Shown one piece after another: positions 37,718 through 40,510 of a DNA stretch of 47,172 bases. Position numbers and translations under genes: made by a program. Within the stretch, counting starts at the first letter, position 1, and each line of letters begins with the position of its first letter. Location: IMG/VR virus record IMGVR_UViG_3300020464_000007, positions 1-47,172 of that record. One strand, given 5' to 3'. Below the pieces are notes generated by a model. It worked only from the letters and a program-made list of their open reading frames with translations. It ran no database searches and had not been told where the DNA came from. The stretch is from a virus (lineage: Duplodnaviria; Caudoviricetes).

Positions 37718-37800
37718 AGCCCTCCACTGGACGTGAGCCTTGGGAGGGCTTCATTAAAGTGCTCAAATACGTACCCTTGAAAACAATTACCCCGCACTTT
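37718..37800 (+). ncRNA. Structured psbA leader (PhotoRC-II-like)
   Basis: Hairpins AGCCCTCC/GGAGGGCT (37718-50) and AAAGTGC/GCACTTT (37756-800) ending 2 nt before the ATG; family name from recall. Confidence 0.5.
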
Positions 37801-37802
37801 TA

Positions 37803-38879
37803 ATGACCGCTGTACTTCAACAACAACAGAGGTCTACCTGGGATGAGTTTTGCTCCTGGGTAACCTCTACTAATAACCGACTCTATGTTGGCTGGTTCGG
37901 GATCCTCATGATTCCTACTCTGCTAGCCGCTACTATTTGTTTTGTAACTGCATTTATTGCAGCACCCCCTGTAGACATTGATGGAATCCGAGAACCAGTC
38001 GCAGGCTCCCTCCTCTATGGAAACAACATCATATCGGGAGCCGTCGTTCCGAGCAGCAATGCCATCGGACTACACTTCTACCCAATTTGGGAAGCTGCTA
38101 CACTTGATGAATGGCTCTACAACGGGGGTCCATTCCAACTTGTCGTTTTCCACTTCCTCATTGGCATCTATTCTTACATGGGACGCGAATGGGAACTTAG
38201 CTATCGACTAGGTATGCGTCCCTGGATCTTTGTGGCATACAGTGCGCCTGTTGCCGCAGCCTCTGCTGTTTTCCTGGTTTACCCTTTTGGTCAAGGATCT
38301 TTTTCCGATGCTATGCCTCTTGGCATTTCCGGCACCTTTAACTATATGTTTGTCTTCCAGGCAGAACATAATATCCTTATGCACCCGTTCCACATGCTGG
38401 GCGTCGCAGGTGTGTTTGGCGGATCTCTGTTTAGCGCTATGCACGGGAGTCTGGTTACATCTAGTCTCATCCGTGAAACGACTGAAGAGGTAAGCCAGAA
38501 CTATGGGTACAAGTTCGGTCAAGAGGAAGAGACCTACAACATTGTTGCAGCTCATGGATACTTTGGTCGTCTTATTTTCCAGTATGCTTCTTTTAACAAC
38601 AGCCGTAGTCTCCACTTCTTCCTTGCAGCTTGGCCTGTTGTTGGCATCTGGTTTACTGCTCTTGGTGTATCTACCATGGCTTTCAACCTGAATGGTTTCA
38701 ACTTCAACCAATCTATTCAAGACCGTGATGGTCATGTAATTAACACGTGGGCGGACATCCTAAACCGAGCTGGTCTTGGTATGGAAGTCATGCATGAACG
38801 CAACGCCCACAACTTCCCACTGGACTTGGCAGCTGCTGAGACTACTCCAGTGGCGCTGACTGCTCCGGCAATCGGCTAA
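37803..38879 (+). CDS. psbA: Photosystem II D1 protein
   Basis: [39 protein letters not shown]; uninterrupted 358 aa. Confidence 0.99.
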
Positions 38880-38889
38880 CTATCTAGTA

Positions 38890-39089
38890 CGTTCATCCTA
38901 TGTTTGACATTCAAGTAGATGATGGTGGCGCTCGTATTATTCGAGATGCACTAAGACTATACAAAAAACAATGGTCCGGTGGTCATCCACAGGAACAGAT
39001 TGATATTGAGTTCTTAGAGATGCAGTTCACCAAAATGGTGCTTGAAGCAAGCATGGACGCATATTGACCACGCATGGAACGGGGCGTGG
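38890..39089 (+). ncRNA. Glutamine-II (Downstream-peptide)-like riboswitch with greatly expanded P2
   Basis: CGTTCA(38890)/TGGAACG(39075) P1; TCC/GGA then CGCA; pseudoknot CCACGC(39068)/GCGTGG(39084); precedes a YRGVxY peptide. Confidence 0.65.
38900..39067 (+). CDS. 55-aa hypothetical protein nested in the riboswitch (MFDIQVDDGGARIIRDAL...WSGGHPQEQ...)
   Basis: Manual translation; open frame with protein-like composition. Confidence 0.55.
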   Translation: MFDIQVDDGGARIIRDALRLYKKQWSGGHPQEQIDIEFLEMQFTKMVLEASMDAY

Positions 39090-39108
39090 ATTTACTAGGT
39101 ACTCAACT

Positions 39109-39216
39109 ATGTCTCTTAATCTCATTCGTTTCCTCGCATCACAGAAAAAGCGTGCAGAGCGCTATCATACTGATGCTCTCCGCTACCGTGGTGTAGTGTA
39201 TAAAGAGATCGACTGA
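39109..39216 (+). CDS. DUF4278-like peptide, 35 aa
   Basis: MSLNLIRFLASQKKRAERYHTDALRYRGVVYKEID; the LxYRGVxY motif is the hallmark of peptides downstream of this riboswitch class. Confidence 0.7.
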   Translation: MSLNLIRFLASQKKRAERYHTDALRYRGVVYKEID

Positions 39217-39385
39217 TTCCGTAAAAGCGGACTGGGGAGTGCAATGCTCCCCTTCAGTATTTGGCATTGGCCCGTACGCGGACACCCTTTGCCGAACCGG
39301 TTTGGTAAAAGACCATAAAATTTTACCACAAAATTTTTTTATCAATCGATTGGTAGTGCTTTTATATTAAGTATTAACTACTACA

Positions 39386-40510
39386 ATGGCTTTTCAATCT
39401 TCTGTAAACCCAGCACAGCTTACTCAGCTGGGTCAATCTAATCTTGCGGGTGATACTCGCGCTCTTTACCTGAAGCTATTTTCAGGTGAGATGTTCAAAG
39501 GCTTCCAGCATAACACAATCGCTCGTGATCTGATCATGAAGCGTACCATTAAGAACGGCAAGTCTTTGCAGTTCATCTATACTGGTCGCACCAAATCTGA
39601 ATTCCATACGCCTGGAAACAGCATTTTGGGTGATAGCAATAATGCACCTCCGGTGGCTGAGAAGACCATCACTATTGATGACCTTCTGATTAGCTCTGCA
39701 TTCGTGTATGAATTGGACGAAGTTCTGGCTCATTACGATCTGCGCTCGGAGATCAGCCGTAAGATCGGCTACGCTCTGGCAGAAAAGTATGACCGTCTTG
39801 CATTCCGTGCTGTTGCACGTGGTGCCCGTCAGGCTTCTCCTGTGTCTGCTACCGGCTATGTTGAGCCCGGTGGTACTCAGATTCGTGTGGGTTCTACCAC
39901 TAACGATTCTGACGCTTTCAACTCCTCTAACCTGGTTGCTGCATTCTATGATGCTGCTGCCGCTCTGGATGAGAAGGGTGTGTCTTCCGACGGTCGTGTG
40001 GCTGTCCTGAACCCCCGTCAGTACTACGAACTGATCCAAGCTGTTGGTTCCAACGGCCTGGTCAACCGCGATGCTCAGGGCTCTGCTCTGCAAAGCGGAC
40101 AAGGTATCATCGAAATCGCTGGTATCAAGATCTACAAGTCCATGAACATCCCGTTCCTGGGCAAATACGGTACCGCTTACGGCGGCACCACCGGTCAAAC
40201 CTCTCCTGGTAACACCGGTTCTTTCGTGGGTGAGTCCCTGGAAGACGCCTCTGGCGCTTCTACTGGTATCAACAACGATTACGGTACTGCTGCTGAAGTC
40301 GGTAGCAAGTCCTGTGGTCTTATCTTCCAGAAAGAAGCTGCTGGTATGGTCGAAGCAATCGGCCCTCAGGTCCAAGTGACCAGTGGAGATGTGTCCGTCA
40401 TTTACCAAGGTGACGTGATGCTCGGTCGCCTCGCCTGTGGCGCAGACTATCTGAATCCTGCTGCAGCCGTTGAGCTGTACGTCGGTGCTACTGCACCTTC
40501 TGCATTCTGA
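39386..40510 (+). CDS. Major capsid protein (gp10-like)
   Basis: ALYLKLFSGE, RTIKNGKSLQF, EKTITIDDLL, YDLRSEIS..IG.ALA. Confidence 0.97.
   Translation: MAFQSSVNPAQLTQLGQSNLAGDTRALYLKLFSGEMFKGFQHNTIARDLIMKRTIKNGKSLQFIYTGRTKSEFHTPGNSILGDSNNAPPVAEKTITIDDLLISSAFVYELDEVLAHYDLRSEISRKIGYALAEKYDRLAFRAVARGARQASPVSATGYVEPGGTQIRVGSTTNDSDAFNSSNLVAAFYDAAAALDEKGVSSDGRVAVLNPRQYYELIQAVGSNGLVNRDAQGSALQSGQGIIEIAGIKIYKSMNIPFLGKYGTAYGGTTGQTSPGNTGSFVGESLEDASGASTGINNDYGTAAEVGSKSCGLIFQKEAAGMVEAIGPQVQVTSGDVSVIYQGDVMLGRLACGADYLNPAAAVELYVGATAPSAF

Follow-up and report, generated by a model that had tools for sequence, protein, structure and literature searches.

The window analysed here is the whole 47,172-nt record IMGVR_UViG_3300020464_000007, and gene order identifies its source virus as a T7-like cyanopodovirus. 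The genes are arranged in the order hli, psbA, a 55-codon ORF, a 35-aa peptide, the major capsid gene (39386) and tail tube genes. Between psbA and capsid, an earlier sequence-only reading had recognized a glutamine-II-like riboswitch that carries the entire 55-codon ORF within one of its stems, and every coordinate it gave was verified in the sequence (CGTTCA, ATG, GGA-CGCA at 39055-61, TGA, CCACGC/GCGTGG, TGGAACG at 39075-81 and the peptide). Two of its names had to be changed according to the nomenclature of the crystal structure (PMC6698751): the hairpin that holds the ORF is P1 rather than P2, and the pairing CCACGC/GCGTGG does exist but represents P2, whereas the pseudoknot is formed by CGUUC and GAACG. 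An outer helix, designated P0 (38881-89/39093-101), had been overlooked. The features are compiled in Table 1. Upstream of psbA there is also a GC-rich hairpin-like stretch (37719-37760), which has no Rfam match at the gathering threshold.

Table 1. Positions of genes and RNA elements in the psbA-capsid interval of the window.
Feature	Position	Strand	Remarks
psbA	37803..38879	+	context; stop codon ends 10 nt upstream of aptamer C1
P0 5' strand, predicted outer helix	38881..38889	+	MFE and centroid folds; likely glutamine-free state
Pseudoknot 5' strand C1-G2-U3-U4-C5, plus A6 (CGTTCA)	38890..38895	+	
P1 5' strand, includes AUG of nested ORF	38896..38906	+	TCC(T)ATGTTTG
Nested 55-codon ORF	38900..39067	+	ATG 38900; TGA 39065-67
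Internal AGTTCA, decoy in sub-threshold Rfam alignment	39024..39029	+	without C1; not conserved
P1 3' strand, last ORF codons	39048..39057	+	CAAGCATGGA
Linking strand C17-G18-C19-A20, ligand-contacting	39058..39061	+	read as end of Asp codon and Ala codon
P2 hairpin CCACGC/GCGTGG	39068-73 / 39084-89	+	loop A33-G42 at 39074-83
Pseudoknot 3' strand in P2 loop	39077-81	+	pairs with 38890-94
P0 3' strand	39093..39101	+	16 to 8 nt upstream of peptide start
35-aa YRG peptide (LRYRGVVY)	39109..39216	+	DUF4278/IF17-like by motif and context

In the glutamine-II crystal structure, C1 binds glutamine and forms a pair with G40, and ligand binding depends on the N4 of C1 (PMC6698751). The pseudoknot CGUUC/GAACG comprising C1:G40 and G2:C39 is invariant in 37/37 aligned relatives as well as in 129/129 distinct nested elements. 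Likewise, the linking strand C17-G18-C19 (39058-60) is present together with the partners of the long-range contacts C19:G41 and A33:G42 (39082, 39074 and 39083), and in this contact test C-G is kept in 37/37 aligned relatives. The P2 hairpin around the AUGGAACGGG loop has 6 bp in the window and at least 6 bp in 126/129 nested elements; among the 37 close relatives it shows two-sided changes at 6/7 pairs and is recovered by RNAalifold. The words CGTTCA, CGCA and ATGGAACGGG are kept in all 129 nested elements and thus every crystal contact could be mapped. Since the classifier of nested elements tolerated only small variants in the core words, the less circular count is that 0 of 175 classified ORFs possess the 3' half of the aptamer without the 5' half. 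The word CGTTCA by itself is common, with 27 occurrences in the window versus 21.9 expected, but its placement 3-11 nt before the nested start in 129 distinct relatives exceeds chance. The second 5' core expected of an interlocked twin aptamer (CGTT[CT] within 80 nt upstream) is absent in 129/129 nested elements. Four elements (L027, L216, L218, L221) carry a second CGTTCA within codons 3-5 of the nested ORF, a possible alternative pseudoknot strand.

At the gathering threshold, no Rfam family matched anywhere in the window. Glutamine-I (RF01739) was not matched in 38300-39800. A loose threshold returned a single match, Glutamine-II (RF01704) at 39021-39089 with 20.5 bits versus a cut-off of 33, in an alignment that takes the internal AGTTCA as the 5' strand. 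Compact relatives reached 47.6-56.3 bits in 7/7 loci tested. In contrast, only one of ten nested loci exceeded the cut-off (L076, 33.6 bits, 50-nt window), nine stayed below and none was matched as a whole. The founding drawing of the class has a P1 loop of 6-24 nt (PMC2864571 and supplement), while the element in the window has a whole ORF in this loop. The oversized loop and the low score constitute the variant feature, and the element was therefore treated as a variant instead of an ordinary member. Judged from its sequence, it is a real and conserved variant of the known glutamine-II riboswitch class.

The Rfam match raises the question of whether the true aptamer is compact and located at the 3' end of the ORF (39021-39089), with the upstream CGTTCA being incidental. 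This is the sole match in the window, and the score of the nested relative L076 exceeds the cut-off owing to a comparable short window. However, AGTTCA lacks C1 with the N4 needed for binding (PMC6698751), and the internal word is absent in 104/129 nested elements and complete (CGTTYA) in just 2/129. The letters of the internal word differ at synonymous positions, in contrast to the upstream CGTTCA, which was found in each of 49 distinct sequences (65/69 loci of the protein search plus the window, after de-duplication). The internal AGTTCA was thus rejected as 5' strand, and a compact aptamer at this position is extremely improbable. Almost as improbable is that the element no longer binds glutamine and is a relic, responds to another ligand or serves as a protein-binding site. 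Its low score and an insert of ~150 nt, far beyond the published 6-24 nt (PMC2864571 supplement), would fit this idea; but all ligand-contacting nucleotides have been retained despite divergence at synonymous sites nearby (dS 0.8-1.0), P1 and P2 covary, and the YRG peptide is kept in 128/129 elements.

P1 must close across inserts of 152-187 nt in the 129 nested elements. Its first pair is U-A and its second C-G or U-G in 129/129, and the third is paired in 128/129 (U-A 64, C-G 55, U-G 7, G-C 2, mismatch 1). Among 18 representatives sharing <70% aa identity, cognate P1 arms form 6.2 contiguous pairs as compared to 3.5 with shuffled partners (0/5000), corresponding to -9.0 versus -4.6 kcal/mol. 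Together with the two-sided changes in P2, the covariation check suggested by the sequence-only reading thus turned out positive for both stems. On a tree of the ORF interiors, the 5' letter of pair 3 changes 13 times and the 3' letter 11 times, the state of the pair only 16 times; an independent-contrast test on this pair yielded only 4 pairs and was therefore unable to reach significance. In the 37 close relatives, the named structure is paired in 89.9% of cells versus 82.8% upon shuffling (P1 alone 80%), while RNAalifold did not recover P1 in this set. A MAFFT alignment of 25 diverse elements misaligned P1 and was excluded from the pair counts. Native codon choice favours P1 closure: in single-sequence folds of 19 elements, the mean closure probability was 0.65 with native codons and 0.14 upon random synonymous recoding. 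Low values were obtained for L511 (0.0), L567 (0.01), L600 (0.15) and L001 (0.30), which is identical to the window. The fold of the whole element is modestly stable (z -1.8; 10/200 shuffles equally good).

The sequence-only reading had also proposed that the stem sequesters the start codon of the ORF. In the window, TCC(T)ATGTTTG indeed pairs with the P1 3' strand through 10 bp with one bulge. Conservation covers the outer 3-4 bp and does not extend to the full 10-bp stem: U and G of the AUG are unpaired in 16/37 relatives when one fixed register is applied. Constrained mini-folds, which were run without a control, paired all three AUG bases in 79/129 elements. From the conservation of pairs, the broken AUG pairs in relatives and the exceptions among the folds it follows that outer P1 is well supported, whereas its longer extension is lineage-specific.

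The nested ORF is conserved: in three clades comprising 56, 23 and 16 sequences, dN/dS amounts to 0.098, 0.122 and 0.103, respectively. Neither of the alternative frames is open in any of these sequences. The ORF starts 3-6 nt after A6 in 98/129 elements and 9-11 nt after it in the remaining 31, and none of the 129 has a Shine-Dalgarno-like word before the nested AUG. Its stop lies inside the aptamer, as had been noted for the window, being located within the linker in 103/129 elements and within the P1 3' strand in 26/129. Accordingly, in the 103 linker-stop elements the last codons coincide with the ligand-contacting strand C17-G18-C19, whereas in the other 26 the ORF ends before the linking strand. 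Of these 103, 94 end with GAC-GCA-stop, and the TGA of this sequence is already common in compact aptamers. Core nucleotides, selection on the ORF and covariation of P1 and P2 all agree with a glutamine-II aptamer that is split by a real, conserved ORF, and we regard this split as almost certainly real.

The encoded protein belongs to a cyanophage helical-hairpin family with the motif W[PSA]GGxPxEQ, which weakly matches phrog_628, includes proteins down to ~30% identity and has a homolog in gp32 of phage S-SBP1. Its predicted structure is a two-helix hairpin (pLDDT 93), and the best structural matches are uncharacterised cyanophage proteins. Searches of Pfam, PDB sequences, PDB by Foldseek, VIA-wide (best Z 7.6, generic) and the ESM Atlas returned nothing informative. 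NblA was considered as an identity and found unsupported: 79 members gave 0 Pfam hits, there was no PDB sequence hit, and the listed fold matches are generic and do not include NblA.

To which extent do glutamine-II elements wrap a gene? We scanned viral contigs with the 3' half alone (5/64 parts; ~1900 stretches estimated). The 120 matches comprised 95 compact elements, 3 with inserts of 41-42 nt, 15 with inserts of 159-185 nt, one cut by the contig end and 6 chance-like matches. Hence, 15 of 113 complete viral elements are nested, and all 15 inserts carry an ORF of one and the same family. The corresponding metagenome scan detected 87 compact, 14 long and 3 incomplete elements besides 9 chance matches; again, the same ORF family was present in all 14 nested elements (14/101). 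In these counts, which were not de-duplicated, a protein gene is enclosed in ~13% of the glutamine-II elements sampled from viral and metagenome contigs. A scan with the 5' half added only two further elements of the family (L470 and L488) and no other nested ORF family. A scan of genome contigs gave 120 loci, which were dominated by chance and included 0 from cyanobacteria and 0 with a compact aptamer, and 120 viral matches to the glutamine-I 3' half contained 0 nested ORFs. When the protein-guided scans were pooled with the others, 194 distinct ORFs of the family were obtained. Of these, 129 have both aptamer halves, 40 neither, 4 are cut at the 3' end, 2 have the 5' half only and 0 the 3' half only; 19 lack the start and remained unclassified. 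Both forms occur in cultured phages: S-SBP1 has the nested form with gp32 as enclosed gene, and S-RIP1 the compact one, in which ACC-UUCG-GGU takes the place of the gene in an otherwise same cassette within the same psbA-capsid island.

Several loci depart from these two forms. In L098, L081 and L102, P1 is expanded without an ORF by inserts of 41-42 nt that share a CAGGACAAG-TACCA internal motif, and L726 is a glutamine-I element with a 68-nt, 12-bp expansion. Deletions, either natural or assembly artefacts, fuse the ORF start out of frame to the peptide region (L069:1826-2100) or remove parts of the nested ORF in frame (L067:2001-2130 and L066). L531 carries a group I intron (1707-1918, 80.2 bits) 3' of the nested element in the capsid region.

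Outside of aptamers, the family is found free-standing in large cyanophage genomes, e.g. between UvsY and UvsW in S-SKS1, and in ~200 cultured phage records, of which the listed ones are of T4-like size. The gene, free-standing in T4-like cyanomyoviruses, would have been captured into the P1 loop, possibly once, and its ends would then have adapted to the stem. A single-clade test of the nested elements gave p-AU 0.43, based on 59 columns, including incomplete nested rows and two apparent secondary losses and leaving out three long branches; a single capture followed by losses is thus not rejected on these sequences. In L513 (897-1200) the ORF is kept but the 3' aptamer half and the peptide are deleted, in L517 the ORF is kept while the aptamer has decayed, and in L518 the ORF is kept and the aptamer is absent. 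The ORF thus persists independently of the switch, as it outlives the aptamer in these three loci and stands alone in myoviruses. At L587:1091-1143, a compact glutamine-I riboswitch (50.5 bits) resides directly 3' of a free homolog of the nested ORF, possibly reflecting the neighbourhood prior to capture.

Downstream of the aptamer, a Y[RK]G peptide starts at most 45 nt from P2 in 128/129 nested and 103/105 compact elements. By motif and context the peptide is DUF4278-like, as named in the sequence-only reading, but the peptide of the window itself does not hit Pfam DUF4278 (PF14105). Of 27 peptides tested, 18 gave weak matches (E 6e-4 to 0.06), none above 25.3 bits and all below the cut-off. 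Given its motif, a function similar to that of the glutamine synthetase inactivator IF17 is possible for the peptide. In S-SBP1, the YRG peptide 3' of gp32 (L070:2723-2829) is unannotated; during S-SBP1 infection, a DUF4278 gene of the host is up by 2.6 log2 at 15 min (PMC7885011 Table 3).

The leader 5' of C1 pairs with the stretch preceding the peptide, and this predicted outer helix P0, which shows covariation, likely provides the expression platform for the peptide. In nested elements, the duplex has -6.3 kcal/mol as compared to -4.6 kcal/mol for shuffled partners, and in compact elements -3.8 versus -3.0 kcal/mol (0/3000 in both cases, with shuffles that ignore relatedness). A duplex below -3 kcal/mol reaches to within 13 nt of the peptide start in 82/97 nested cases. 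P0 agrees with a model from the literature in which the pseudoknot is in competition with a fold that masks the ribosome site (PMC6698751). The stop codon of the upstream gene lies on the P0 5' strand. This gene ends 8-10 nt before C1 in 84/111 nested elements, and its end is psbA-like in 50/104. The same gap occurs in 48/94 compact elements and therefore does not reflect adaptation to nesting.

The sequence-only reading had further placed the capsid gene under control of the switch, which is not supported. Capsid is the next gene in 83/124 elements, the others having another or unknown gene (27/124) or too little contig (14/124), and in most cases peptide and capsid are separated by another conserved structured RNA. 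This second RNA, at 39216-39345 in the window and in most relatives, shows apparent compensatory changes by eye. It contains a T-arm-like hairpin at ~39234-39252 with loops such as GGTTCGATTCC or GGTGCAATTCC, followed by a TTGGC..CCGTACGCGG..GCCG stem-loop, with GACGGTGGGATAGACCAC present in many relatives. It has no Rfam match of note, is no tRNA and folds with z -2.2; possibly, it represents a processing site or a capsid leader. Scans for promoters and terminators detected nothing above chance between psbA and capsid, and a clear terminator is located 3' of capsid (40521-42). Metatranscriptome contigs span the element (e.g. 38804-39207), and these indicate neither strand, nor level, nor RNA origin.

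How could the enclosed gene and the peptide be governed by one aptamer? Glutamine is known to lock the pseudoknot of this riboswitch family and to activate the gene that follows (PMC6698751, PMC6212724). We consider it somewhat more probable than a coin toss that the element is a reciprocal translational switch, in which glutamine induces the peptide and represses the nested gene, a reading that builds on sequence and position. Without glutamine, P0 would cover the initiation region of the peptide, which would stay silent, while P1 would be marginal and ribosomes would start at the nested ORF. The missing Shine-Dalgarno word indicates that these ribosomes are probably handed on from the upstream gene. 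Each of them would unfold P1, the linking strand and the 5' side of P2. With glutamine, the pseudoknot would occupy positions -10 to -6 of the nested AUG and stack on P1 over the AUG. The locked pseudoknot and P1 would then block the nested start, and displacement of P0 would release the peptide. That folding and translation exclude each other, as had been proposed, holds true insofar as a ribosome completing the nested ORF must unfold the aptamer wherever the last codons are the linking strand (103/129). Two points complicate this scheme. The cover of the AUG is uneven across elements, the start lying 9-11 nt into the loop in 31/129, and initiation at the nested ORF would also melt the P0 5' strand, so that the two outputs could be less clearly opposed. 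The fuller claim that one aptamer enclosing a whole gene yields two opposite outputs per binding event, with ribosome traffic making the behaviour switch-like, has in our view slightly less than an even chance.

The main rival to the reciprocal switch is that the nested gene is a tolerated passenger: the aptamer would switch the peptide, the gene would be translated through upstream coupling with hardly any dependence on glutamine, and P1 would be kept for the sake of the aptamer. In the crystal construct P1 was swapped for a UUCG hairpin, and a two-piece aptamer still binds glutamine (PMC6698751); that P1 is replaceable agrees with a passenger, as do the persistence of the ORF without the aptamer in L513, L517 and L518, the variable positions of ORF start and stop relative to the stem, and the free-standing phage homologs. 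However, the nested start lies 3-11 nt from the pseudoknot strand in 129/129 elements despite protein identities as low as ~30%, so that the ligand-locked helix always falls within the initiation footprint, and absence of a Shine-Dalgarno sequence leaves no independent ribosome entry. On balance, we judge a mere passenger to be rather unlikely.

Alternatively, the nested ORF could mainly serve as an input, such that ribosome traffic sets the frequency of aptamer folding; the glutamine threshold would be raised, or the peptide tied to translation of the psbA operon, and both genes may move together. The overlap of the last codons and the stop with the linking strand in 103/129 elements and the upstream stop on the P0 5' strand are in line with such a role, and initiation at the nested AUG would, as deduced from positions, open P0. 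But strong purifying selection on the protein argues that the product matters and not transit alone, and in the 26 elements with the earlier stop the ORF ends before the linking strand is reached. This role as principal function appears improbable.

Aptamers of riboswitches are regarded as compact domains that do not code for protein, and riboswitches are considered rare in phages. Glutamine riboswitches in phages have been reported (PMC9004378, PMC9964418, PMC5473149), with two glutamine aptamers in cyanophages in a census from 2017 (PMC5473149); PMC12379486 covers cellular genomes. We found no published description of a gene inside an aptamer in the literature covered, outside of which most subscription journals fall, and the available part of the S-SBP1 transcriptome paper (PMC7885011) makes no mention of a riboswitch. 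With 9/10 tested nested elements below the Rfam cut-off, censuses undercount such elements, and if the switch is real, a hidden class of gene-spanning riboswitches would escape covariance-model scans. The nested layout makes folding and translation compete on one mRNA and thus provides a natural test of competition between ribosome and aptamer. It points to nitrogen sensing by lytic marine phages: if true, the nitrogen status of the host would decide whether T7-like cyanophages make a glutamine-synthetase-inactivator-like peptide or a conserved viral protein. Direct testing is possible with a cultured pair, the nested S-SBP1, which infects Synechococcus WH7803, and the compact S-RIP1.

The closest known system is the published glutamine-II riboswitch RF01704 (6QN3), with which the element shares the core C1, G2, U3, A6, C17, G18, C19, A33, G35, A38, C39, G40, G41 and G42 (PMC6698751) as well as the order P1-pseudoknot-P2, the short downstream YRG peptide and a probable translational ON logic (PMC2864571, PMC6212724). 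In a Prochlorococcus type-2 aptamer, reporter output rose after addition of ammonium (PMC6212724). Unlike the published aptamer, P1 of the nested elements spans a whole conserved gene, the ORF starting in or beside P1 and stopping in P1 or the linker, and most phage copies follow 8-10 nt after the stop of an upstream gene rather than residing in a clear 5' UTR. Compact glutamine-II elements of phages, such as that of S-RIP1, have the same cassette with a closely related peptide and an outer helix, but there a short loop (UUCG in S-RIP1) is found where the gene is present here. The glutamine-I riboswitch (glnA, RF01739) of gifB/IF17 has nearly the same binding pocket (PMC6698751), and its activation by freeing the ribosome site (PMC6212724) is a further likeness. 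Glutamine-I is built as a three-way junction with an E-loop, whereas the element described here is a pseudoknot. Long-range pairing is reportedly also used by the fungal TPP riboswitch, which shares the long-distance contact with our element but acts on splicing. Coding sequence is tied to structured RNA in ORFs within loops of group I introns and in leader peptides such as mgtL. However, intron-loop ORFs are mobile nucleases and mgtL-type leaders short sensor peptides, whereas here the gene for a folded protein of 54-62 aa resides inside a ligand-binding aptamer.
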